From an uncultured Nitrospiraceae bacterium (GTDB taxonomy: Bacteria; Nitrospirota; Thermodesulfovibrionia; Thermodesulfovibrionales; SM23-35): 64,000 nt of DNA. Where the stretch lies: the NCBI GenBank assembly GCA_963727775.1, contig CAVSHB010000002.1, forward strand, positions 608,001-672,000. Reading direction: 5' to 3'. The notes under the pieces were generated by a model. The model was not told the origin of the DNA. It searched no databases and worked only from the letters and a program-made list of their open reading frames with translations. Shown here in pieces: positions 21,807 to 54,068 of the stretch. Made by a program: the position numbers and the translations under genes. Every line of letters starts with the position of its first letter. Position 1 is the first letter of the stretch.

Positions 21807-23486
21807 ATGGATAATAAAAAAATTATGCCATTGTTTTTGCTTATTGCCTTCCTGATTTTCCCCGTATATGTAAGCGCTGCAAAAGGAGTTGTCCAGGACG
21901 CGAAAATGTGCCTGGCATGTCATTCGGATAAGACGTTGTCCAAAAAACTTATGGATAAGGAAAGGCTCCCATTATATATTGATGGGCATGAATTTGCAGG
22001 TTCCGTCCATTCCAAGGTCGGATGTTCGGGATGCCACACGGATATCTCCATGGACAACCATCCACAGGTAAAAAAGATAATGAGTAAAAAAGAGTATGTC
22101 GCAAATATGTCCAGGAATTGTTCACGATGCCATACTCCCGAGAAGCTGAAGAAGAAACCGATGCACAGTTCATTGGCAGCTAAAGGCACTTGCGTTGAAT
22201 GTCACGGCTCTCATTATATTAAGGGATTGGCAGAGCAGAAGGGCGGGGTAAAGGAAAACCAATACTGCCTGACCTGCCACAGGAACAAACTCAGCATGTC
22301 ATTGAAGAACCATGAATCCCTTTCCGTTTATGTAGACGAATCAGTCCTTAGGAATTCCGCGCACAGGGACCTTCAGTGCAGTGGTTGTCATACGGCCTTT
22401 TCGAAAAACCTGCATCCGGTCAGATCTTTTGAGAACAGGCGTGACTATACTATCGCCTCTTCCGAGGCCTGCCGGAAATGCCATGCAGCAGCATACAAAC
22501 AGTATGAAGTCAGCGTCCATCGTGCAGGTATAAAGGTTGGAAACCTTAAAGCTCCCGTATGTTCCGACTGTCATGGCGAGCACTCGGTGTCCGTCATAAA
22601 GAAAGACAGGAACATCGGCCTGAGGTCCTGCAACAAATGCCATGCGGATATGAACAATTCTTATGAGGCCAGCGTTCACGGCAAAGCAAGGAAGATGGGA
22701 TATGAGAAATCCCCTGTCTGCTCGTCGTGCCATAATGCTCACAATGTTGAGTCTACTGCAATGACCACAAAGATAAAAGAAGGTTGCGCGAAATGCCATA
22801 AAGATGCCGGAAAATCCCATAATAAATGGCTGTCGAATCCTCCGATAACTATGCCTTCGTTTGCAGCCGCCCATTTCGACGTTGTGTCATGCGCTGCATG
22901 CCATTCTGCCGGGGCCAAGCGGGGTGTATATCTCAGCCTGTTTAATCGGAGAACCGGGAAACCCGTGACCGATGGAGAGTTGCAGGAGCTTCTGCATACG
23001 GATTCCGCCGGATTGATCGGGAAAGTGGACACGAATGGAGACGGGAGTATTGATGCGAAAGAGTTGTGGGATTTCTTTGCTCTGCTGTATAAGAAAGGTA
23101 TCATTGCGATATTCCAGGGTAAGATGGACGTGAGCACCGCAAAGGAAGCGCATCAAATCGGGGCCAAAACAGAAGCAGTAAAGGACTGCGAAAAGTGTCA
23201 CCTGCCCGGCGCCGAACTGTTTAAGAATGTTTTTGTTACCATTAAAAAGACCGACGGCAAACCGATGCTCCTGCCTGCGAAAGAAGAAGTGCTCACTTCG
23301 GTATATTCGATATTGCCGGTCAGTAAGTTTTATGCCCTCGGCAGTACGAGCATAAGGCTTCTCGATATTCTCTTTATCATCGCCCTCATCGGCGGCATTG
23401 CCGTGCCGATAGGCCATATCTCATTAAGAATAATAACTTCACCCCTCAGGGCATTAAGGAGAATGGGGAAGGGAGGCAAGAAATAA
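21807..23486 (+). CDS. 13-heme cytochrome c with EF-hand and C-terminal membrane anchor (CbcA-like)
   Basis: Signal peptide, 13 CxxCH motifs counted, DTNGDGSIDAKE EF-hand, C-terminal TM containing His. Confidence 0.88.
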   Translation: MDNKKIMPLFLLIAFLIFPVYVSAAKGVVQDAKMCLACHSDKTLSKKLMDKERLPLYIDGHEFAGSVHSKVGCSGCHTDISMDNHPQVKKIMSKKEYVANMSRNCSRCHTPEKLKKKPMHSSLAAKGTCVECHGSHYIKGLAEQKGGVKENQYCLTCHRNKLSMSLKNHESLSVYVDESVLRNSAHRDLQCSGCHTAFSKNLHPVRSFENRRDYTIASSEACRKCHAAAYKQYEVSVHRAGIKVGNLKAPVCSDCHGEHSVSVIKKDRNIGLRSCNKCHADMNNSYEASVHGKARKMGYEKSPVCSSCHNAHNVESTAMTTKIKEGCAKCHKDAGKSHNKWLSNPPITMPSFAAAHFDVVSCAACHSAGAKRGVYLSLFNRRTGKPVTDGELQELLHTDSAGLIGKVDTNGDGSIDAKELWDFFALLYKKGIIAIFQGKMDVSTAKEAHQIGAKTEAVKDCEKCHLPGAELFKNVFVTIKKTDGKPMLLPAKEEVLTSVYSILPVSKFYALGSTSIRLLDILFIIALIGGIAVPIGHISLRIITSPLRALRRMGKGGKK

Positions 23487-24169
23487 TGAAAAAGATATAT
23501 CTTCATCCGCTACCGATCAGAATCTGGCATTGGGTGAATGCTCTGGGTTTTATCATCCTGATCCTTACCGGGACACAGATCAAAATGGGGAATGCCATTC
23601 ATCTGGTATCGTTCGAAACCGCGGTTAAGATCCACAGCTGGCTGGGGTTCATTCTTCTGGCAAATTACTTTATATGGCTTGTCTATTACCTCGTTACGGG
23701 CAACATAAAAATATACATACCCCCTCTGACCCGTCCGATGGAGTTCGCCAAGAAGGCTTTAATCCAGGCAAAGTTTTACGGGTGGGGCATAATGGTCGGA
23801 GACGAGAACCCCCATCATTCATCGCCTGACAATAAGTTCAACCCCATGCAGCAGGTGTCGTATCTCGCGATCATGGTGGCATTAATCCCTGTACAGATTA
23901 TAACCGGACTTTTCCTGTGGGACCCGCACTTCTTCGGGCCTGCCGTTAACCTTATAGGAGGGATACAGATAGCGGACCTGGTCCATATCCTTCTTTGGAT
24001 ATTCTTCAGCGCCTTCATTATTGTCCATTTTTATCTCGCTACTCTCGGACATACTCCTATGGCGCATATTATCGCGATGTTTTCAGGATTTGAGGAAGAA
24101 CATGAAGAGCACGGCCACGGCGAGGAAGATGGCCACGGCCATGCAGAAGAACACGGACACAGCCACTAA
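23486..24169 (+). CDS. Di-heme cytochrome b (Ni-hydrogenase CytB/PhsC/CbcB-like) with His/Glu-rich tail
   Basis: RIWHWVNA, KIHSWLG, KFNPMQQ, VH..HFY; translationally coupled to the cytochrome c. Confidence 0.88.
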   Translation: MKKIYLHPLPIRIWHWVNALGFIILILTGTQIKMGNAIHLVSFETAVKIHSWLGFILLANYFIWLVYYLVTGNIKIYIPPLTRPMEFAKKALIQAKFYGWGIMVGDENPHHSSPDNKFNPMQQVSYLAIMVALIPVQIITGLFLWDPHFFGPAVNLIGGIQIADLVHILLWIFFSAFIIVHFYLATLGHTPMAHIIAMFSGFEEEHEEHGHGEEDGHGHAEEHGHSH

Positions 24170-43102: not shown

Positions 43103-43966
43103 ATGGTTATCTCTATAGCAAGCGGTAAGGGAGGAACAGGCAAGACCACTGTTGCAGTAAGTCTTGCCCTTTCGGCAGGAGCGTGTCAATTTCTTGATTG
43201 TGACGTGGAGGAACCTAATGCCGCTCTCTTTCTAAAACCGTCGATCACGGAAAAGAAATCGGTAAGTGTGTTTGAACCCTGGGTAGACGAGTCGAAATGT
43301 TCTCACTGCGGAGAGTGTTCCAGCATTTGTGCTTACCATGCCATTGCGGCATTTGAAAAGAATGTCCTTATCTTCCCTCCTTTGTGCCATGGATGCGGCG
43401 GGTGTATTTTGGTATGCCCTGAAAAGGCAATCACGGAAGGAAAAAGAAATATAGGAGTTATTGAAGAAGGCACGAGCAATTCCATAAGCTTTATGCAGGG
43501 GATCCTGAACATAGGGGAACACATGGCAACTCCGGTAATCAAAGAAATGAAAAAGCTCATTAGAGAGGATGTGAATGTTATTATCGATTCTCCTCCGGGC
43601 ACTTCCTGCCCGGTGATTGAAAGCATCAGGGGAAGCGATTTTGTATGTCTCGTTACCGAGCCGACGCCGTTCGGCCTGAACGATCTCAAATTAGCAGTAG
43701 ATGTGGTAAGGGAACTGAAGCTCTCCTTTGGCGTGATTATCAATTGCGATGGCATCGGGGATGACAGGGTGGAGCGATATTGCCGGAAAGAAAATATTCC
43801 GCTGCTACTGTCCATTCCGTGGAGTAGATGTATTGCCGAAGCATATTCCAAAGGAATCCCTGCGACAGACATATTGCCTGACCAGTTTCGTTTTCTTTAT
43901 CAGAAAATAGGAAGCATCGTCGGGAATAAAAGAGATTTCGGGGTGCAGTTGGAGACTTTGAGATGA
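43103..43966 (+). CDS. MinD-superfamily P-loop ATPase with inserted 2x[4Fe-4S] ferredoxin (COG1149)
   Basis: SGKGGTGKT, DCDVEEPN, two CxxCxxCxxxC motifs, PPGTSCP, TEPTPFG. Confidence 0.9.
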   Translation: MVISIASGKGGTGKTTVAVSLALSAGACQFLDCDVEEPNAALFLKPSITEKKSVSVFEPWVDESKCSHCGECSSICAYHAIAAFEKNVLIFPPLCHGCGGCILVCPEKAITEGKRNIGVIEEGTSNSISFMQGILNIGEHMATPVIKEMKKLIREDVNVIIDSPPGTSCPVIESIRGSDFVCLVTEPTPFGLNDLKLAVDVVRELKLSFGVIINCDGIGDDRVERYCRKENIPLLLSIPWSRCIAEAYSKGIPATDILPDQFRFLYQKIGSIVGNKRDFGVQLETLR

Positions 43967-44841
43967 AACAGTTGACCATTATCAGCGGTAAAGGGGGGAC
44001 CGGCAAGACAACCTTAACTGCCGCATTCGCCCATCTTGCCGATCAAGCAGTGATAGTTGATTGTGACGTCGATGCAGCCGACCTCCATCTTATACTTACA
44101 CCGCGTATTACAAAACAGGAACCATTTCATGGAGGCCATCTGGCCTCTATTGACAATGAACGATGCACCCGGTGCGGATTGTGTGAACAGGAATGCCGTT
44201 TCGGAGCCATCAGTGCTTTCAGGGTCGATCCTTTTTCCTGCGAAGGCTGCGGCGTCTGTGCATATATCTGTCCGGAGAAGGCCGTTTCGATGGAGGAAAG
44301 GCTCTCCGGCTACTGGTTTGTCTCTGATACAAAAGAAGGCACGCTGGTCCATGCACGGCTGGGAATAGCGGCGGAAAATTCCGGCAAGCTTGTCTCCACG
44401 GTGCGGCAGAAGGCGAAGGAATTGGCTGAAAAGGAGAAGAAGGATCTCGTTATCATTGACGGCCCACCCGGCATCGGTTGTCCGGTGATAGCATCGATTG
44501 GTGGTGTAGCCCTTGTCCTTATTGTGACAGAGCCGACTCTTTCGGGACTCCACGATTTAAAAAGGATACTTGAAGTGGCAAAGCATTTCAATATCCCGGC
44601 GATGGTGTGCATTAATAAATGTGATATCAATCCGGAAAATGCCCGGTCCATCGAAGGCTATTGTGAAGAAAAGAGGATTGCAATCGTTGGGAGAATCCCA
44701 TACGATCCGGCTGTGACCTTGGCGATGATGAATGTCCTTTCGGTGGCGGAATATCCCTGCGGGCAAGTGACCGAGGAAGTAAAGAAGACGTGGAAGAAGG
44801 TGGAAGAGTATCTCTTTGGAGCTAATAAAACGAAATGTTAA
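43963..44841 (+). CDS. Second COG1149 MinD/ferredoxin ATPase
   Basis: SGKGGTGKT, DCDVDAAD, two ferredoxin motifs, ENSGKLV, PPGIGCP. Confidence 0.9.
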   Translation: MKQLTIISGKGGTGKTTLTAAFAHLADQAVIVDCDVDAADLHLILTPRITKQEPFHGGHLASIDNERCTRCGLCEQECRFGAISAFRVDPFSCEGCGVCAYICPEKAVSMEERLSGYWFVSDTKEGTLVHARLGIAAENSGKLVSTVRQKAKELAEKEKKDLVIIDGPPGIGCPVIASIGGVALVLIVTEPTLSGLHDLKRILEVAKHFNIPAMVCINKCDINPENARSIEGYCEEKRIAIVGRIPYDPAVTLAMMNVLSVAEYPCGQVTEEVKKTWKKVEEYLFGANKTKC

Positions 44842-44885
44842 TTTTAAAATTTAAGAATGGATACCCAAATAATGGAAGATTCCTC

Positions 44886-44915
44886 TTGTAATTGTTATGA
44901 GCATATGCTTATAAT
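44886..44915 (+). promoter_or_regulatory. sigma70 promoter (TTGTAA-18-TATAAT) containing palindrome TTATGAGCATATGCTTATAA
   Basis: Palindrome at 44895-44914; ATG of the DUF134 gene 5 nt after the -10 box. Confidence 0.7.
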
Positions 44916-44920
44916 AAACC

Positions 44921-45211
44921 ATGTCCAGGCCCAAGAAAGTGAGATGTGTTAAATGCAAGCCTGATGCAACGTATTTCAAGCCGAGGGCCATCCCCATGAC
45001 GGAACTTGAGGAAGTGTCTCTAAGTATGGATGAACTTGAAGCGATCAGGCTCGCTGATTATGAGAAACTATATCATGCAGATGCGGCGAGAAAGATGGAG
45101 ATATCGAGGCAGACGTTCGGTCGCATCCTGAATGGAGCTCACAAAAAAGTTGCCGAGTGTTTTTTAAAAGGTAAGGCGCTCAGAATAGAAACAAAAGAAA
45201 AGGAGAAATGA
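44921..45211 (+). CDS. DUF134 (UPF0251) HTH protein
   Basis: MSRPKK.R, YFKP, ELEAIRL.D, MEISRQTF, A.KKVA. Confidence 0.9.
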   Translation: MSRPKKVRCVKCKPDATYFKPRAIPMTELEEVSLSMDELEAIRLADYEKLYHADAARKMEISRQTFGRILNGAHKKVAECFLKGKALRIETKEKEK

Positions 45212-45212
45212 G

Positions 45213-45593
45213 ATGAAAGTATGTTTCCCGGTTGCAAAGGTTGAAGGTATGAATAGTAAGGTGTATGGACATTTTGGTTCTGCTCCCGCGTTCATTGTTG
45301 TCGATACCGCAAATAATAGCGTTACAACGATCAACAACGGCGACCAGAACCATGAACACGGTCAGTGCAATCCGGTGAAGGCGCTGAATAGCCAGCAGGT
45401 TGACGCGATTGTGGTTGCGGGTATCGGAGCGGGCGCCCTGACAAAGTTGAATCAGCAAGGTATTAAGGTTTTTCAGGCGCAGGCCCAAACAGTAGAAGAA
45501 AATATTCTTATGCTGAAAGACCGAAATCTCCCGGAGTTCTCTGCCCAGCACACCTGTGCCGGTCACGACCATGGAATAAGTTGCGGACATTAG
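45213..45593 (+). CDS. NifB/NifX family protein with His/Cys tail
   Basis: GHFGSAP, HEHGQCNP, GIGAGA, HTCAGHDHG..CGH. Confidence 0.85.
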   Translation: MKVCFPVAKVEGMNSKVYGHFGSAPAFIVVDTANNSVTTINNGDQNHEHGQCNPVKALNSQQVDAIVVAGIGAGALTKLNQQGIKVFQAQAQTVEENILMLKDRNLPEFSAQHTCAGHDHGISCGH

Positions 45594-45621
45594 GAACTCC
45601 TTGAAACAGGAGTAGCATAAT

Positions 45622-45732
45622 CATAACCCCTCCTGTACTCCCCTTATCTCAAGGGGTAGGGAAGATTATCTCGAAAAATATTGGGATGACGAAGGCCCCC
45701 TCTTAGGTTAAGAGGGGGAAGGGGGGAGTTAC
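45622..45732. repeat. Inverted pair of REP-like elements
   Basis: TAACCCCTCC..CCCCTTATCTCAAGGGG and CCCCCTCTTAGGTTAAGAGGGGG..GGGGAGTTA. Confidence 0.6.
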
Positions 45733-45760
45733 AAAAAGACAATTTCAATAGGAGGTTCTA

Positions 45761-46129
45761 ATGGCAAAGAAGAGGATAGCTATAATTGCGTGCAAGAACA
45801 TAAAGGGTATCAGCTGCGTGGGTGGTTGCCTGAAATGTTTTAAAGGTATTGCAGAGAAGGCAGGGGAGTATGAGCGGTGGAAGGATTACGAAATAGAACT
45901 TATTGGTATGGATGACTGCGGCGGCTGTCCGGGTGTATTGATGCCGAAGGTCGCTTTGATGATGGATATGGGAAAACTCTATGACAGGGATTTCGATGCT
46001 GTCCACTTGGGTACATGTATGATGAAAGCTGTACAGACCGCGAAGTGCCCGATTGATATTGAAGACTTCAAAAAGAAGATTGAGACGAAGTTTAACAAAG
46101 AGGTAATCTTCGGCACCCATCCGTATTAA
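45761..46129 (+). CDS. CGGC-domain protein
   Basis: IIAC...C...C.KC, CGGCPG, HLGTC, CP, GTH; RBS AGGAGG. Confidence 0.88.
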   Translation: MAKKRIAIIACKNIKGISCVGGCLKCFKGIAEKAGEYERWKDYEIELIGMDDCGGCPGVLMPKVALMMDMGKLYDRDFDAVHLGTCMMKAVQTAKCPIDIEDFKKKIETKFNKEVIFGTHPY

Positions 46130-46649: not shown

Positions 46650-47903
46650 ATGAGCGAATCAGCAAGTTGGGATTGGGAAACGAAAGAAAAATTAATCGCA
46701 GATATCAATGATTGGAAAAAGAAGTACATTGATGTCCGTGAATTAACCCCCTCTGATGATGGTGAGAAAATAGCCGCTGTAGTCCAGCCGGACAAAGGAA
46801 AATTTACTACCTGTATAAATGGAAATATCTGGGAAGAAAAATTTGAGAGGGTATATTCACTCAAATTCAATCCTGATAATCAACTTATATCATTAACCTA
46901 TAGAGATTATGTATGGGCTTTAGCTGTTGATCATGAGATGTGGGAGGAAACGTTTGATTATATATGGAACCTGACGTTAACCCAGGATGGCAAAGGTATC
47001 GCAGTCAGTATTAAAAGGGATCCGCAACTTGGAGCTGCTATAAATGGACAAGTGTGGGAGACACTGTTCACAGATGCACGGCATCTTGCCGTAAGCCCTG
47101 ATGGAAAGAAGACGGCGTCTTGCATTCAAATAAAGCCCATGAAGTCATTAGATATCTTTACTTATCAAGAAGGCATCTGGACTGTTGCAGTGGATGGAAC
47201 TCCGTGGGAAAAAACATTCTGGAGTGTCTGGGGTCCTGCCTTTAGCCCTGACAGTAATCATGTAGCTGCATGTGTCAGGACTGGTTTTGCTCAATATAAC
47301 ATTGCGGTTGATGGAAAGACATGGGAGGGGGGCTTCGGGTTGGTCTGGGAACCGATCTTTAAGCCCAATAGTAATGATGTGATTGCACCTATCAGGACTC
47401 CCCAGGGCAGTACACTGGCGATGAATGGAAAGCCGATTTGGGGGTTTTTCTCCAATGTATGGCATCAGGGATTCAGTCCCGATGGCCAGAAGATAGCTGC
47501 TGTTGTTGCCAAATTCCCGGTTTGGACAATTGCTGTTGATGGTACGCCGTGGCAGACTGCTTTTAGTGATGCAGTTCTCGCCCCGGTATTTAGTCCGGAC
47601 AGCAAAAGAATCGCAGCAGTAGTAAAGGACAATAAAAGATGGACAGTTGCGGTAGACGGTACGCCATGGTCTGAAAAGTTCGATAATACCTGGGATCCGG
47701 TTTTTAGTCCTGATAGCCACAGGGTGATAGCCAAGACAGAAAGAAACGGCAAATTTCATATAGTTGTTGACGGTAAGGTTGGCAAGAAAGGATACGAATC
47801 TCTCTGGGATCCGGTTTTTAGTCCTGATGGCGGTAAATTATTGATACGGTGTATTGACGCTGGAAAATATTATCGCCGAGTTGTCCCGATAAATGAAATA
47901 TAA
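46650..47903 (+). CDS. tmcD: TmcD-like Trp-rich beta-propeller protein
   Basis: SWDWE N-terminus; repeated WTVAVDGTPW...PVFSPD units. Confidence 0.8.
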   Translation: MSESASWDWETKEKLIADINDWKKKYIDVRELTPSDDGEKIAAVVQPDKGKFTTCINGNIWEEKFERVYSLKFNPDNQLISLTYRDYVWALAVDHEMWEETFDYIWNLTLTQDGKGIAVSIKRDPQLGAAINGQVWETLFTDARHLAVSPDGKKTASCIQIKPMKSLDIFTYQEGIWTVAVDGTPWEKTFWSVWGPAFSPDSNHVAACVRTGFAQYNIAVDGKTWEGGFGLVWEPIFKPNSNDVIAPIRTPQGSTLAMNGKPIWGFFSNVWHQGFSPDGQKIAAVVAKFPVWTIAVDGTPWQTAFSDAVLAPVFSPDSKRIAAVVKDNKRWTVAVDGTPWSEKFDNTWDPVFSPDSHRVIAKTERNGKFHIVVDGKVGKKGYESLWDPVFSPDGGKLLIRCIDAGKYYRRVVPINEI

Positions 47904-47918: not shown

Positions 47919-48593
47919 ATGTATGATTTTATAAAAGACCCAACACTTTATAATCTCGTGAGAGGGCCGTTGGTCTGGATCGCATTTCTCATATTTATTG
48001 GTGGGAGTATCTATCAGTTGAGAAATTTGATTTTGCTCGCAAAGAAAGAAAAAGTCGTGTATCCTTATATGAGCTTGAAATTGACTCTGCGTTCCCTTTT
48101 ACACTGGCTCGTGCCATTTGCGAGTGTCAACGGGCGAAGACACCCTGTCATTACCATCATGACTTTTATTTTGCACAGCGGCATTGTTATTCTTCCCATA
48201 TTTGTTCTTGGTCACATTGTCCTGATAAAGGAATCGTGGGGTATCAGCTGGTGGAACATTCCCGAAGGATGGGGAGACACGCTGACTCTTTTTGTCATTG
48301 CCGGTTGTATCTTCTTTTTCCTCAGAAGAATTTTTGCTCCCGAAGTCAGATTCGTCACATTTTCTTCAGATTATCTCATCCTTGCAGTCACTTTTCTGCC
48401 ATTCTTGACCGGTTTTCTGGCATATCACCAATTGCTGCTTCCAAATAAGACCATGGTAACCCTGCATATGCTTTTTGGAGAAATTATGTTGATAGCAGTA
48501 CCGTTTACGAGAATAATTCATATGTTTTATTTCTTTTTGACGAGAGCGTATATGGGGTCTGATCAAGGCTTTCGTCATTCACAGGACTGGTAA
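47919..48593 (+). CDS. tmcC: TmcC/HmcE NarI-like membrane cytochrome b
   Basis: GPLVW, SLLHWLVPF, LH..GH, TGFLAYH, LH...PFTRIIHM. Confidence 0.82.
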   Translation: MYDFIKDPTLYNLVRGPLVWIAFLIFIGGSIYQLRNLILLAKKEKVVYPYMSLKLTLRSLLHWLVPFASVNGRRHPVITIMTFILHSGIVILPIFVLGHIVLIKESWGISWWNIPEGWGDTLTLFVIAGCIFFFLRRIFAPEVRFVTFSSDYLILAVTFLPFLTGFLAYHQLLLPNKTMVTLHMLFGEIMLIAVPFTRIIHMFYFFLTRAYMGSDQGFRHSQDW

Positions 48594-48617: not shown

Positions 48618-49997
48618 ATGGCTGAAGTAGGCACGGAAGAAAGAGTCAAAGCAAAAGATGTGTTTGATCTTAAGAGAAAACCTGTCGCCGATATAGGATT
48701 TGATGAAACTGTTAAGAGACTCACTCCGGAAAAGATAGAAAAAGCGATTAATGCCGTAATAAATTTAAGGAAAAATGCGGGGAGATTCAAAGCTCCCCTC
48801 GATACCTGCATTCATTGCGCTCTCTGCGCAGAGGCATGCCATTGGTATATGTCTCATGGTAAAGACCCCTCATATGCGCCTGTTGCGAAGGTGAGGATGA
48901 CCCTATGGGAGATGATAAAGAGAAAAGGAAAGGTTAGCCCTGAATTCATGAAACAGGCTGCGCGGATTGTCTTTGCAGAATGCAATCTCTGCAGGCGTTG
49001 CAGCATGTACTGTCCCTATGGGCTCGATATAGCATATCAGCTTGGAATGGTACGCCGCATCTGTTTTCTGCTTGGATTGGTTCCTCAGAATATACTCGAC
49101 CAGGATAACAGCCATTCCGCTACCTTGAATCAGCTATGGATTACCCAGGCTGACTGGATTGACACCATGCAATGGCAGGAGGAGGAGGTAAGAGCTGACG
49201 TAAAGAACGCCCGCGTCCCCGTTGATAAAGAAGGGGCAGATGTCATGTGGTGCCCGCTCGGTACGGAGCCGAAAATAGCTACTTATCATATTGCCCGTAC
49301 TGCCAAGATCATGAATGTTGCCGGAATTGACTGGACGGTCGCATCCATGGATGGCTGGGATTGTGCCAATATGGCAATGTTCATCCGCGACATGGAGACG
49401 ATGCAGAGGGTTGTAAGAGGGATTTATGAAAATGCCATGAAGCTGAAGATCAAACGAATAGTACTGACTGAGTGAGGGCATCCACTGAATGCCACATGTT
49501 ATGTGGCACCGCCTCTCTTAGGATGGAAAGAAAGCCCGATTGAGACCCTTCATCCCATTGAGTTCTACTATGAACTTGTCACTACGGGAAAGATAAAAAT
49601 AGACAAGAGCAAGAAAATCAAGGGCCCTGTTACCATTCAGGATCCCTGTAACCTGGTAAGGTTGCGAGGTGCAGGAGAAAAGCTCCGGTATCTTGTAAAC
49701 GAAACCTGTGATGGTATTGTTGAAATGCATCCCAACCGTGGGCATAATTATTGCTGTAACGCCGGCGGCGGCGGAGCCGCTATTGGTCAACCGTGGAGAA
49801 ACAACAGGTGTGAAGGCAATAGCATTAAGGCTAAACAGATAATAGAAACAGGGTGTCACACCATCGTGACACCCTGCCATAACTGCTATACCGGCATTAA
49901 CGATATCTTGAAGTATTATAGTATCGATGGCCATGGCAAGTTTATGGATGAGTTAATAACTGAAACAATGGTAGTTCCAGACGAATTTACACCGTGA
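48618..49997 (+). CDS. tmcB: TmcB/HmcF (HdrD/DsrK-like) Fe-S CCG protein, 459 aa, probable selenocysteine at codon 286
   Basis: Two CxxCxxCxxxC motifs; ORFs 48618-49475 and 49503-49997 are in frame; TE-TGA-GH corresponds to ECGH; QDPC, YCC, PCHNC downstream. Confidence 0.8.
49473..49508 (+). promoter_or_regulatory. UGA plus bacterial SECIS-like hairpin
   Basis: TGA, 14 nt, then perfect stem TGCCACAT-GTT-ATGTGGCA; loop begins with GU, 22 nt from the UGA. Confidence 0.7.
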
Positions 49998-50022: not shown

Positions 50023-51720
50023 ATGACTAAAAAGTTATTGTTCTTCGTATTGTGTGCATGTTTTCTGTTCTTAATTGCCAGCGGATTGCGCGCAGTCTAT
50101 TCTGTAGAGAGTCCTGTAAAGGAACAAAAGGCGCTTGAAAGCAAGCCTGCCGTTAAAACAGATAATAAGCTTGCGATCGCTCACACGGAAATCTTCGGTG
50201 AGTTGGAGCGGCCGCAGGTAATTTTTGACCATCAGAAACATGTCGAGGCCCTGAAAAAGGAGGGCAAGAAAGAGGCAGAAACGTGTACGAAATGCCATCC
50301 TGTCGACGAGGAAAAGGACCTCATCCTGTTTAGTTTTCCCAAGAAGGTAAAGGGCAAGGACAAAGATGCGGTGATGCACGCCTACCATGACGAATGTATT
50401 ACCTGTCATAAAGAGAAGAGGATAGAAAAGAAAAAGGCAGGTCCCGTCATCTGCGCGGATTGTCATATCGAGAAGCTCCGATACGTAAAGCCCGATCATC
50501 CGGTATTTGAATTTGATTATCAAGTCCATGATAACCATGATAAGAAGCTCAAAGAGAGAAACATTAAGGAGACCTGTGATCGCTGTCATCATATCTATGA
50601 TGAAGAATTAGTTTACGAAAGAGGAAAAGAATGGTCCTGCTACTATTGCCACGATACCTCAAAGAAAACAGGCCCGGTATTGGCTGCTGCGACACGGATT
50701 ACTAAAAAGAAGGATTTTACCATAAGAAAAGTTTCACACGTTAGATGTCTCAACTGCCACCTGTATTTTACTCTGACGGAGAAACCTGATCCGACGGGGA
50801 AGAAAAAAGCGGGTCCTCTTGTCTGTGATAAATGTCATATCGGCAAATATAGAACAGTTGCCGAACTCGAAAAGGTTCCGCGGCCTGACGCTGGTCAGCC
50901 GAAACAGCCTTTCATACATATAGAAAATGCCAAGCTGAAGGGTGTAATGTTTGACCACAAGACTCATGAAACTAATTCCAAGACTTGCAGAGGCTGTCAT
51001 CATGAAACATTGAATGCCTGTAAGGAGTGCCACGATATTACTGGTGACGCTAAAGGAAAGTGGGTCAATACCGCAAATGCATATCATGATATATTTTCCG
51101 GAAAAAGCTGTGCCGGCTGCCATGGGATTAAGAAACAAGAGAAAGATTGCGTGGGCTGTCATCATGCGATATTACCGATGAACCTGGAGACAAACGGTCC
51201 GAAGAAAGAGACCTGCGCCCTCTGTCATACGGGGAAAAAGGAAGGCATTCCCAAGCCGCAAAAACTCTCTACGGCTGAACTCGCTAAGGAACTTGATAGA
51301 GAAAAAGTCAAAAAAGAGGTTGAGGTGAAGGTTCTGGAGAAGGAATTTAAGCCGGCCAAATTCCCCCATTTCAAGATGATCGAGAGGATGGTCAAAATAT
51401 CAAATGACAGCGGTCTGGGGTCTTATTTCCATGCGAAGATGCAGACTATCTGCGACGGGTGCCATCATCAGAGCCGCGCGGAAGCTGAAGCAAAGAAAAA
51501 TACTCCGCCGTTGTGCAGAAACTGCCATTCGATAACTTTTGATCCTCTGCACATGAACAGGCCGCGCCTGCTCGCAGCTTATCATCGCCAGTGTATCAGC
51601 TGTCATGAGAAGATGAAGCTTGAAAAGCCGAAACAATGTAAAGAATGCCATGAAAAGAAAGCTGTGAGGCCCAAATATGTCATTCCGAAACCTTTGGGCT
51701 ACGACGACCTGTTAAAGTAA
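50023..51720 (+). CDS. hmcA: 16-heme high-molecular-weight cytochrome c
   Basis: Signal/anchor sequence, exactly 16 CxxCH motifs in c3-type modules (FDH..H, AYH..C). Confidence 0.88.
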   Translation: MTKKLLFFVLCACFLFLIASGLRAVYSVESPVKEQKALESKPAVKTDNKLAIAHTEIFGELERPQVIFDHQKHVEALKKEGKKEAETCTKCHPVDEEKDLILFSFPKKVKGKDKDAVMHAYHDECITCHKEKRIEKKKAGPVICADCHIEKLRYVKPDHPVFEFDYQVHDNHDKKLKERNIKETCDRCHHIYDEELVYERGKEWSCYYCHDTSKKTGPVLAAATRITKKKDFTIRKVSHVRCLNCHLYFTLTEKPDPTGKKKAGPLVCDKCHIGKYRTVAELEKVPRPDAGQPKQPFIHIENAKLKGVMFDHKTHETNSKTCRGCHHETLNACKECHDITGDAKGKWVNTANAYHDIFSGKSCAGCHGIKKQEKDCVGCHHAILPMNLETNGPKKETCALCHTGKKEGIPKPQKLSTAELAKELDREKVKKEVEVKVLEKEFKPAKFPHFKMIERMVKISNDSGLGSYFHAKMQTICDGCHHQSRAEAEAKKNTPPLCRNCHSITFDPLHMNRPRLLAAYHRQCISCHEKMKLEKPKQCKECHEKKAVRPKYVIPKPLGYDDLLK

Positions 51721-51871: not shown

Positions 51872-52867
51872 ATGGGAATTAGCAGGAGAAATTTTTTTGG
51901 GCGTGTGGCTACCATTGCCGGAACTGCCATACTCGGCAGAAGCACAACAGCCCATGCATTGAATACGGCAAATGAAAGAAACTGGAATCTGTGGTATAAG
52001 AAACTGCCGCCTGTAAGTGAAGAGCGTTACGGTGTACTCGTCGACACAACTGTCTGTATCGGATGTAGGAGGTGTGAGTGGGCGTGTAACGAGTGGAACA
52101 AGAATCCAAACCCGCCGATAGAAGAGTTTGAAACTTCAGTAAACCAGAAGAGCTCTGTTTTCGATACTGTAAGAAGGATGCATGCGGAAAACTTTACGGT
52201 GGTAAACCGGTTTATAAGTCCTAAAGACGGAAAACCTATATATGTAAAAAGGCAGTGCATGCATTGCGAGGATCCGGGATGTCTGTCGTCATGCTTTGTT
52301 GATGCTTACAGGAAGACAAAAATGGGGCCGGTTTTGTATGGCCAGGGTCTTTGCGTCGGATGCCGTTACTGTATGGTTGCCTGCCCTTTTGATGTTCCTG
52401 CTTATGAATACAATGAACCTCTTAATCCGCAGATTACCAAATGCACTTTCTGTTTCGACAGAATTACCGTAGGCAGTGTGCCGGCTTGTGTTGAGATCTG
52501 TCCGGCCCAGGTGATGACATTCGGGAAAAGGAGTGACCTGATTAACCTTGCCCATAAACGGATTATAGATAATCCGGGCAAATATGTTGATCATATTTAC
52601 GGGGAACATGAAGTCGGCGGAACAAGCTGGATGTATCTATCTTCTGTCCCCTTTGAGCAAATTGGCTTTAAAACAAGTCTTCCGGAGGCAACGGTACCCA
52701 GTCTCAGTAAAGGGTATCTCTTCGGGGTAAAGATGTTCGAAGTAATCGGTGCATGGCCACTGGTCTTTGGGGCTTATTATGCGATATCAAAGGCTCGCAA
52801 GAAAACAAAAGGTAGCGATGAAGCATCTTCTGAGCAGAAAGGAGAAGGCCATGGCGCAAAACACTAA
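51872..52867 (+). CDS. hmcB: HmcB/HybA-like Tat-exported 4x[4Fe-4S] protein
   Basis: SRRNFF Tat motif, four Cys clusters, YGEHEVGGTSW, C-terminal TM. Confidence 0.88.
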   Translation: MGISRRNFFGRVATIAGTAILGRSTTAHALNTANERNWNLWYKKLPPVSEERYGVLVDTTVCIGCRRCEWACNEWNKNPNPPIEEFETSVNQKSSVFDTVRRMHAENFTVVNRFISPKDGKPIYVKRQCMHCEDPGCLSSCFVDAYRKTKMGPVLYGQGLCVGCRYCMVACPFDVPAYEYNEPLNPQITKCTFCFDRITVGSVPACVEICPAQVMTFGKRSDLINLAHKRIIDNPGKYVDHIYGEHEVGGTSWMYLSSVPFEQIGFKTSLPEATVPSLSKGYLFGVKMFEVIGAWPLVFGAYYAISKARKKTKGSDEASSEQKGEGHGAKH

Positions 52868-54068
52868 TTCTTGGGTCAGAGAGAAGATATTCCTTGGTAT
52901 GTCGAACCGAGACTATATTGCCAGTATTGCCACCCCATGGAATTTTCTTGCAGCTATCATTCTGTTCTTTGCAGTTGGCGTAATGATTTGGAGACTCTTT
53001 TTCGGACTTGGGGCAACGACAAATCTTTCTGATGATTATCCTTGGGGGTTATGGATAGGATTTGACATACTTGTCGGAATCGCCCTTGCGGCTCCGGGTC
53101 TTACCCTCGGGACAGCGGTTCATCTTTTCGGGATGAAGAAATATAGTCATTTTGTACGTCCGGCTATTCTTTCAAGCATGCTCGGATATATTTTCGCCGT
53201 AATTGCGCTTCTCTTCGACCTCGGTCGTTATTATCGTATGCCATATCTCTTGGGCGGGTCATGGGGATTTTCCTCTATCCTGTTCCTGATAGGCTGGCAT
53301 TTCTTTCTGTATATCAATATTTGCCTTATCGAATGGAGCCCCGCTCTGTTTGAATGGCTGAATCTGAGAAATCTCCGTGAATTCTTTAATAAACTGGCTA
53401 TCTGGGCTACTATTTTCGGGGTAATCATAGCGGGTGGCCATCAGTCTGCTCTCGGCGGTTTGTATCTTCTTGCCCAGAGCAAACTTCATCCGCTCTGGTA
53501 TTCGAAACTATTACCTGTTTTTTTCCTTCTGTCGGCGATCTTTGCTGGCATAGCCATGGTGATTGTTGAAAGCACGATTACCCATCGTGTTTTTAAAAGC
53601 CAGGTTAAGGACTTTAGTCAGCCTGATTTTGACAGGCTGACCATCGGTCTCGGTAAGGGTGCAGCGTCTGCCATGGTCATTTACCTTATACTGAAAATGC
53701 TCGGTGTCGCCGATGCCGACAATTGGGAGTACTTGAACACCCCGTACGGCTACTGGTTCTTAGTGGAACTCCTCGGCTTTGTCCTCTTTCCGGTTTTCCT
53801 CTTTACCTCTGCCGCCAGAAACGATAATGCCAAACTTGCCCGGATTGCGGGTTTCATTACCGTCTTCGGCGTTATATTAAACCGGCTGAATGTATCTGTT
53901 ATTGCTTATAACTGGGATCTTCCCGCCTCGTCGCTCAGATATTATCCGAGATGGTCTGAGATTGCACTAACCTTAGGAGTTGTTACTATGATCATATTAG
54001 CTTATCGCTGGATTGTGAACAGGATGGCTATTATGCACGAACATCCTGAATATGAGTCAGAGCATTAA
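52851..54068 (+). CDS. hmcC: HmcC/HybB NrfD-family membrane protein
   Basis: TNLSDDYPWGLW, DLGR, HQSALG, KLHPLW, LNRLN; start MAQN at 52851. Confidence 0.88.
   Translation: MAQNTNSWVREKIFLGMSNRDYIASIATPWNFLAAIILFFAVGVMIWRLFFGLGATTNLSDDYPWGLWIGFDILVGIALAAPGLTLGTAVHLFGMKKYSHFVRPAILSSMLGYIFAVIALLFDLGRYYRMPYLLGGSWGFSSILFLIGWHFFLYINICLIEWSPALFEWLNLRNLREFFNKLAIWATIFGVIIAGGHQSALGGLYLLAQSKLHPLWYSKLLPVFFLLSAIFAGIAMVIVESTITHRVFKSQVKDFSQPDFDRLTIGLGKGAASAMVIYLILKMLGVADADNWEYLNTPYGYWFLVELLGFVLFPVFLFTSAARNDNAKLARIAGFITVFGVILNRLNVSVIAYNWDLPASSLRYYPRWSEIALTLGVVTMIILAYRWIVNRMAIMHEHPEYESEH

Follow-up and report, generated by a model that had tools for sequence, protein, structure and literature searches.

The window analysed here is a stretch of 64,000 nucleotides (nt) from an uncultured Nitrospiraceae bacterium (assembly GCA_963727775.1, contig CAVSHB010000002.1, positions 608,001 to 672,000 of the forward strand). 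It carries a gene for a CCG-type iron-sulfur subunit of an Hmc/Tmc-like complex that is broken by an in-frame UGA codon. With high confidence, this is predicted from sequence comparison to be a single gene in which the UGA is recoded as selenocysteine (Sec) with the help of a downstream hairpin, the presumed selenocysteine insertion sequence of the bacterial type (bSECIS). The gene is very probably a genuine selenoprotein gene, because the UGA column is conserved opposite cysteine (Cys) codons in related genomes, the hairpin is conserved together with the UGA, and the machinery for Sec synthesis and insertion is present in the genome. Papers are cited below by their PubMed Central accession on the basis of excerpts of their text. 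The parts of the gene are the following:

48618..49997, + strand: gene for a TmcB/HmcF-type iron-sulfur protein of 459 amino acids (aa) with one internal UGA (NCBIfam and Pfam matches, AlphaFold2 model).
48807..49013, + strand: ferredoxin-like region with eight Cys (C64/67/70/74 and C122/125/128/132) for two cubane [4Fe-4S] clusters (motif, alignments).
49473..49475, + strand: in-frame UGA, predicted Sec codon, residue 286, at the Cys of the E-C-G-H motif (homologue alignment).
49490..49508, + strand: predicted apical hairpin of a bSECIS, TGCCACAT-GTT-ATGTGGCA, with a perfect 8-bp stem and a GUU loop (folding, covariation).
49647..49886, + strand: complete C-terminal CCG motif C344, C379, C380, C420 and C423, predicted site of the single noncubane [4Fe-4S] cluster (alignment; role of the motif after excerpts of PMC10861901).

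Read-through translation gives one frame of 459 codons over 48618-49997 (+ strand), the sole internal stop of which is the TGA at 49473-49475 in the context IVLTE-TGA-GHPLNATCYVAP. The terminator of the gene (49995-49997) is also a TGA. Around residue 286 the predicted read-through peptide is IVLTE-U-GHPLNATCYVAPPLLGWK, with the motif TE-U-GH-P. Under translation table 11 the gene falls apart into pieces of 285 aa (48618-49475) and 164 aa (49503-49997), and the GTG that the open reading frame (ORF) caller takes as the start of the second piece, at 49503, falls within the hairpin. The initial annotation of this DNA had described a frame broken only by the TGA, which annotation pipelines would report as a split gene. 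Sequence, ORF list and read-through translation agree with the first part of that description, and the second is seen in the databases, where N-terminal fragments of 285-288 aa make up 13 among the best 120 clusters. In public gene annotations, this gene and dozens of relatives are each broken up into a 285-aa fragment and a remainder, which hides an Hmc/Tmc-type catalytic subunit across a family of uncultivated Thermodesulfovibrionales.

The UGA has been kept at the same alignment column in many relatives, where it pairs with Cys codons. Among 30 loci from 41 related genomes, aligned codon 286 is TGA in 22 and TGC or TGT in seven, the last being uncovered. A second set of 23 loci from named metagenome-assembled genomes (MAGs) contains 14 with TGA, eight with TGC or TGT and one that is unaligned. 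After deduplication, 29 distinct TGA loci with protein identities of 48-81% are left. Over the two sets, TGC or TGT stands at this column in 15 loci. Order-wide, 62 of 317 genomes possess a homologue at E<=1e-100. Homologues are present in 42 of the 56 genomes of the window's own family and in 18 of the 21 of a second family, mostly as Cys forms in the latter. By hand count, at least one TGA occurs in 46 of the 84 order-wide matches, a number that has to be read with the TGA column verified for the fetched loci only; in one relative (G034) the TGA was the ordinary stop at the end of the gene. At least six changes between Sec and Cys are required on a quick tree built from 38 homologues, in which L046 forms a long branch, and this number fits with a catalytic, exchangeable residue. 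The genome to which the window belongs has a single TmcB match and no Cys-type paralogue.

A published bSECIS model specifies an apical loop of 3-9 nt, an upper stem of 4-16 bp, a G in the first two loop positions, a distance of 16-37 nt from the UGA and a minimum free energy of -7.5 kcal/mol or lower (PMC13188914). The hairpin in the window falls within all of these limits: its loop of 3 nt (G, then U) begins at 49498, 22 nt past the A of the UGA, its stem has 8 bp and its energy is -10.5 kcal/mol. Only one of 200 shuffled versions of the hairpin alone folded as well (z = -3.07). The perfect stem, the GU-starting loop and the spacing were thus correctly recognized in the initial annotation, and so was the pairing of the UGA with Cys codons of homologues. 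The hairpin is kept in TGA forms of the gene and mostly lost in Cys forms. In 20 of 24 distinct TGA sequences the minimum-energy fold contains it at an unchanged register, so that homologues with both the UGA and the hairpin at this column do exist, and the mean energy over 48 nt is -15.7 kcal/mol for TGA forms versus -10.1 kcal/mol for 13 Cys forms. Over the 24 distinct sequences 89.6% of the cells are paired and three of the eight base pairs have changed on both sides, for instance from U-A to A-U at the loop-closing pair and from A-U to U-A in L064. None of 500 shuffles reached the covariation score, and registers slid along the alignment pair to 22-57%. In the proposed mechanism, SelB loaded with Sec-tRNA(UCA) would bind the hairpin while the ribosome stands at the UGA and would insert Sec at position 286.

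Two Cys forms differ in what they keep of the hairpin. The L047 locus (L060:275-6583; G020:C3) holds a Cys-type sister paralogue of the window's Sec clade that lies outside the TmcDC/HmcA operon, and it encodes a similar peptide (ATTYMAP) with a broken stem. It adjoins genes for a LysR regulator of the 'selenium metabolism-associated' kind (307 bits) and a divergent YedE-type putative selenium transporter (496 bits), and is followed by a double-cubane-cluster reductase and its activase. This paralogue may be a selenium-responsive Cys backup or may have a role in selenium handling. In L043 (G014:C47), a TGC form nested with the TGA forms L050 and L051, the hairpin GCCGU...ACGGC is retained after the codon as in these Sec sisters, at -16.4 kcal/mol over 48 nt, which looks like a recent switch between Sec and Cys, in either direction, the SECIS being a remnant or pre-formed. 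Very short contigs from a sediment metagenome run (X4) stack exactly on the window's hairpin (window 49482-49513), with a summed depth of ~46-56 over it and 5-10 on its flanks. The pile-up suggests that, of the sequence shared by co-occurring strains, the hairpin is the best-conserved island.

The search of the genome for selA, selB, selC and selD retrieved all four, each over its cut-off: selA with 619 bits, selB with 371 and 350 bits, and selD with 371 and 370 bits. A tRNA-Sec with anticodon UCA and G73 is encoded at G000:C3:290654-290747. Both selD genes are of the Sec type (L010, G000:C1:1546371-1547294; L011, G000:C4:188434-189357), and both selenophosphate synthetases look like selenoproteins since there is one in-frame TGA in each gene. 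The genome also encodes, outside the window, a second set of components:

L076:10770-10860 (G000:C1:1566769-1566859), - strand: Sec-like tRNA with anticodon GCA, of the selC* type, over the Rfam tRNA-Sec cut-off.
L076:5768-5858 (G000:C1:1561767-1561857), - strand: Sec-like tRNA with anticodon GCA, of the selC* type, over the Rfam tRNA-Sec cut-off.
L076:8855-10735 (G000:C1:1564881-1566725), - strand: second selB, 350 bits, directly downstream of one GCA tRNA.

Transfer RNAs for Cys of the selC* type occur in Nitrospirae among other phyla (PMC7609411), and forms with UCA and with GCA anticodons have been reported to recode UGA as Cys together with a SECIS (PMC13582414). In the excerpts of this literature, a selB* gene downstream of selC* is described for Syntrophobacterales and Desulfobacterales; here the arrangement is found in a probable Nitrospirota genome. 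Other selenoprotein genes were sought in the window and none was accepted. There are 16 long TGA-bridged frames, and the only other sizeable one, with its TGA at 22887-22889 of the minus strand, runs antisense over the gene of a multihaem cytochrome. The region concerned (21807-24169) contains a gene for a multihaem cytochrome c of 559 aa followed by one for a 227-aa membrane protein with a His-rich tail, and the long antisense TGA-bearing frame over it mimics a selenoprotein candidate and is regarded as noise.

As had been claimed initially, both halves of the read-through protein keep their iron-sulfur motifs. Pfam recognizes Fer4_8 at residues 61-136 and CCG at 338-427 (31.3 bits, cut-off 20.6). 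None of the eight ferredoxin Cys varies in the alignments of 41 and of 38 sequences, C149 and the five C-terminal CCG cysteines are likewise invariant among the 41 homologues, and the five CCG cysteines are kept in every full-length row of the 38-row alignment. The N-terminal CCG module is degenerate. Residue 286 is the sole conserved Cys or Sec left in it, within an E285-C286-G287-H288 motif that is invariant across the 41 homologues, and its other motif positions are not conserved. The idea of a vestigial second cluster site, C212-x36-C249-x36-U286, was rejected because only 8 of 38 rows have C212 and only 5 have C249, both without relation to the presence of Sec. The protein thus has what excerpts of PMC10861901 give as the definition of DsrK, TmcB and HmcF, namely two cubane motifs, one complete CCG motif and a lone T/GECGH cysteine. 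The AlphaFold2 model has a predicted local distance difference test score (pLDDT) of 87.1, and the nearest solved folds in a Foldseek search were EtfD, LutA and HdrB. The best NCBIfam match is TmcB (NF045724), at 563.1 bits against an equivalog cut-off of 735; HmcF (NF045711) follows with 362.6 bits (cut-off 750) and DsrK with 177.3 bits (cut-off 400). The name TmcB, which the gene had been given at first, can therefore be kept in part only. It is the best-scoring family and TmcC and TmcD are neighbours, whereas the score stays below the cut-off and the cytochrome partner is HmcA-like and not TmcA.

Several points weigh against recoding of a single selenoprotein gene as the explanation. Insertion of Sec is deduced from sequence, the source sample is absent from the indexed public runs, where the share of sampled words found in any one run is at most 0.09 and no holder of RNA was listed, and from four public runs only short contigs of relatives could be recovered; four such contigs, from three runs, span the codon, with no difference there among the rows listed. 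The equivalog cut-offs of TmcB and HmcF are both unmet. Stretches wider than the hairpin are unremarkable against their shuffles (40 nt: -11.2 kcal/mol, z = -0.53, 61 of 200 as good; 68 nt: -21 kcal/mol, z = -1.69, 9 of 200 as good), because of which the folding energy alone is insufficient and the comparative evidence has to carry the claim. Part of the conservation of the hairpin is a constraint on the protein, as the stem overlaps the conserved coding sequence A-T-x-[YF]-V-A-P, and the covariation derives from few events in related sequences. Finally, the genome has two 95-nt Sec-like tRNA-Cys (GCA anticodon, U73) and the second selB. These last genes raise the possibility that the UGA is read partly or mainly as Cys, for example when selenium is scarce, by selC*-type tRNAs with the second SelB, which would make the residue conditionally selenium or sulfur. 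The two tRNAs exceed the Rfam tRNA-Sec cut-off with 57 and 55 bits, the second selB lies next to one of them, the literature cited above has both selC* in Nitrospirae and UGA-to-Cys decoding by such tRNAs, and the genome is devoid of a Cys-type TmcB paralogue. Yet UGA is not a normal pairing partner of a GCA anticodon, the genome also has the canonical tRNA-Sec, selA and two selD of the Sec type, and the UGA has been kept over many genera despite the cheap alternative of a TGC codon, which argues that Sec itself is selected. Decoding as Cys, in part or in the main, is considered quite unlikely.

That the TGA is a nonsense mutation or an assembly error is highly improbable, both in the version of a pseudogene and in that of two polypeptides, a 285-aa ferredoxin and a 164-aa CCG protein, comparable to HdrC plus HdrB. 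Gene callers do split the gene at the TGA, and recoding of UGA is never complete, so that some truncated product is likely. Against this stand the 29 distinct loci, from independent assemblies and down to 48% identity, in which the TGA occupies the same column and always that of a Cys, and the downstream half with its five CCG cysteines in every full-length row. Moreover, the break would fall inside a domain, between a strand (280-283) and a helix (287-300) of the model, and the GTG start of the second piece would lie inside the hairpin. Reassignment of TGA as a sense codon throughout the genome, as in translation tables 4 or 25, has a practically negligible probability: nothing beyond the open frame itself speaks for it, TGA terminates eight further window ORFs of 250 aa or more as well as this gene, the column pairs with Cys only, and the scan for long TGA-bridged frames gave antisense noise only.

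The T/GECGH cysteine that corresponds to residue 286 has been discussed for related enzymes. Barbosa et al. 2024 describe DsrK, HmcF and TmcB as proteins with one CCG motif plus this strictly conserved cysteine, which they propose to be catalytic, raising binding to the cluster in the as-isolated state as a possibility (PMC10861901). In the same paper, DsrK and TmcB are reported to show an electron paramagnetic resonance (EPR) signal of the cluster without added substrate, and recombinant HdrB, as a counter-observation, to do likewise. The structure of EtfD from M. smegmatis (9ojn) provides a second point of reference: U286 aligns with EtfD Cys581 and H288 with His583 (phmmer E 9.7e-4, profile E 2.6e-10). 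Cys581 ligates the cluster of the first module and His583 completes the coordination of the noncubane cluster (PMC13083937).

On balance, it is somewhat favoured that Sec286 takes the role of a lost second cluster and acts as redox-active partner to the one noncubane cluster that is left. It would replace the invariant T/GE-C-GH Cys, the only conserved residue of an N-terminal CCG module that in HdrB and HdrD binds a second noncubane cluster. In this proposal, Sec286 would most likely be a free nucleophile facing the noncubane [4Fe-4S] cluster of the C-terminal CCG motif. Its attack on a disulfide or on a trisulfide substrate similar to the DsrC-trisulfide would give an Se-S intermediate, to be resolved by electrons that arrive via the membrane cytochrome b and both cubane clusters. 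Selenium would make that step faster or allow it at a lower potential. A point against this scheme is that the free-nucleophile mechanism has been derived from homology and from a proposal in the literature.

The initial annotation had the selenium ligate the noncubane cluster. As it was worded, this is unsupported, given that the C-terminal CCG motif is intact and supplies all five canonical ligands and that Barbosa et al. propose the residue as catalytic. In a broader form, with the selenol as a permanent or resting-state ligand of the cluster instead of a free nucleophile, the idea is rather unlikely, even if it draws some support from the cluster EPR signal of DsrK and TmcB without substrate (PMC10861901), from the alignment of H288 with a noncubane cluster ligand of EtfD, and from a second TGA with a hairpin of its own at a true CCG ligand position in one relative (L039, see below). 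On the other hand, the C-terminal motif has all five of its ligands as Cys, recombinant HdrB shows the signal without substrate too (PMC10861901), and U286 aligns with a ligand (EtfD Cys581) of the other, missing cluster, for the remaining ligands of which there are no conserved counterparts (C212 in 8 of 38 rows, C249 in 5 of 38). A further reading, unlikely as well, would have Sec286 as a hemilabile sixth ligand of the noncubane cluster, giving an Hdr-type cluster that is selenium-ligated at rest and opens when substrate arrives; in this lineage the site would be tunable between selenium and sulfur by repeated gene switches and by possible Cys insertion through selC* and SelB*, perhaps with a second Sec at a ligand position in one relative.

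In L039 (2698-2700; G003:C19:48823-50139), a paralogue in a related genome has a second in-frame TGA besides the U-G-H codon. It replaces the first Cys of the CxxC in the complete CCG motif, where a genuine ligand of the noncubane cluster is expected, and is followed by an 8-bp hairpin (-9.9 kcal/mol over 42 nt; matched by one of 40 other homologous stretches). The second TGA is a singleton among the 317 genomes of the order, and it could be an assembly error.

The genes around the interrupted one agree with its assignment to a complex of the Tmc/Hmc type:

46650..47903, + strand: TmcD-family subunit (NF045725, 497 bits, cut-off 440).
47919..48593, + strand: membrane cytochrome b anchor of the TmcC/HmcE type (NF045723, 277.5 bits, cut-off 240; Pfam Nitrate_red_gam).
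50023..51720, + strand: HmcA-like periplasmic cytochrome c with 16 haems, 565 aa (NF045713, 468.6 bits, cut-off 400).
51872..52867, + strand: HmcB-like periplasmic iron-sulfur subunit (NF045715, 356.2 bits, below the cut-off of 420).
52749..54068, + strand: HmcC-like membrane subunit of the NrfD type (NF045714, 452.4 bits, below the cut-off of 550; Pfam NrfD).

The order is TmcD-TmcC-TmcB-HmcA-HmcB-HmcC on one strand, and the neighbouring genes are unbroken. A TmcA model gave 91.6 bits with the gene next to TmcB, below its cut-off of 114. This order is conserved in relatives, 33 of 52 related loci having a homologue of TmcC upstream together with one of HmcA downstream. The family matches of the neighbours bear out the earlier proposal of a cytoplasmic CCG subunit of a Tmc/Hmc-type complex, encoded in an operon that is otherwise intact. 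In Thermodesulfovibrio sp. N1 the equivalent gene set has been named an Hmc complex (PMC5165239). The closest public contigs, at 76-81% identity, are from MAGs of Thermodesulfovibrionales/Nitrospirota, and the genome has a DsrK of its own (712 bits) in the Cys form and without a stop. As a Cys-type DsrK is present and the relatives have this affiliation, the genome is probably that of a sulfate- or sulfite-reducing member of the Thermodesulfovibrionales. With the GTG start listed for it, the HmcC-like ORF shares 119 nt (52749-52867) with the HmcB-like gene; its true start is probably near 52930 because the family match begins at residue 62. Upstream of TmcD, on the same strand (43963-46129), four small genes encode a MinD/ParA-type ATPase with two 4Fe-4S motifs, a DUF134 protein, a protein of the dinitrogenase FeMo-cofactor-binding type and a CGGC-domain protein, which may form a metallocluster-handling set.

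Selenoproteins of this general kind have been catalogued since 2004-2006. A 2026 review lists an 'Fe-S oxidoreductase (GlpC)-like' family with the Sec motif U-G-H, crediting its reference 12 (PMC13188914), and members of this family have been counted in Syntrophobacter, Desulfotalea, Desulfovibrio and worm symbionts (Zhang et al. 2006, PMC1794560; PMC1976440). The protein from the window matches this family in motif and domain, as a CCG-domain iron-sulfur protein with a single Sec in U-G-H and many Cys homologues. The GlpC-like family is one of anaerobic sulfate reducers and syntrophs, from which the present protein differs in being the TmcB/HmcF-type subunit of an Hmc/Tmc complex of the membrane and in coming from Thermodesulfovibrionales (Nitrospirota). 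In the open-access literature searched, no statement was found that TmcB or HmcF is a selenoprotein, the supplementary tables of selenoproteome surveys, which may list such genes, being outside the search; nor did the titles and abstracts listed from that literature contain a selenoprotein statement for Sec in HmcF, DsrK or the Tmc complex. As the kind of selenoprotein is already catalogued and the recoding mechanism is known, the result is a sound correction of the annotation and no discovery.

Sec/Cys pairs typically mark redox-active catalytic residues. The repeated swaps between Cys and Sec at T/GE-C-GH therefore provide independent comparative support, of modest value, for the proposal of a catalytic cysteine in the DsrK, TmcB and HmcF enzymes.

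Further close counterparts are TmcB of the TmcABCD complex and HmcF of the HmcABCDEF complex of Desulfovibrio, with which the protein shares the best family matches, the TmcC and TmcD neighbours, and the combination of one CCG motif with the T/GECGH residue. Unlike these, it scores below both cut-offs, its genes have the order D-C-B followed by HmcA-B-C, with a 16-haem HmcA-like cytochrome instead of the tetrahaem TmcA, and Sec takes the place of Cys. DsrK of the DsrMKJOP complex has the same architecture and the same conserved cysteine (Cys329 in GECGH in A. fulgidus), proposed to be catalytic in the reduction of the DsrC-trisulfide (PMC10861901); by its score (177 bits against a cut-off of 400) the protein from the window is a distant paralogue of it. 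Compared by description, HdrD4 and HdrF2 of Desulfobacterium autotrophicum HRM2 are also similar, being HdrD-like CCG selenoproteins in a sulfate reducer, and the excerpts of the HRM2 paper list TmcBCA separately, without calling TmcB a selenoprotein (PMC2702500). The closest solved folds are those of M. smegmatis EtfD (9ojn) and HdrB (5odc), with which the CxxC/E-C-G-H segment aligns residue by residue. Unlike EtfD and HdrB, which have a cluster in both CCG modules, the protein encoded in the window keeps only the Sec/Cys and the His of its first module.

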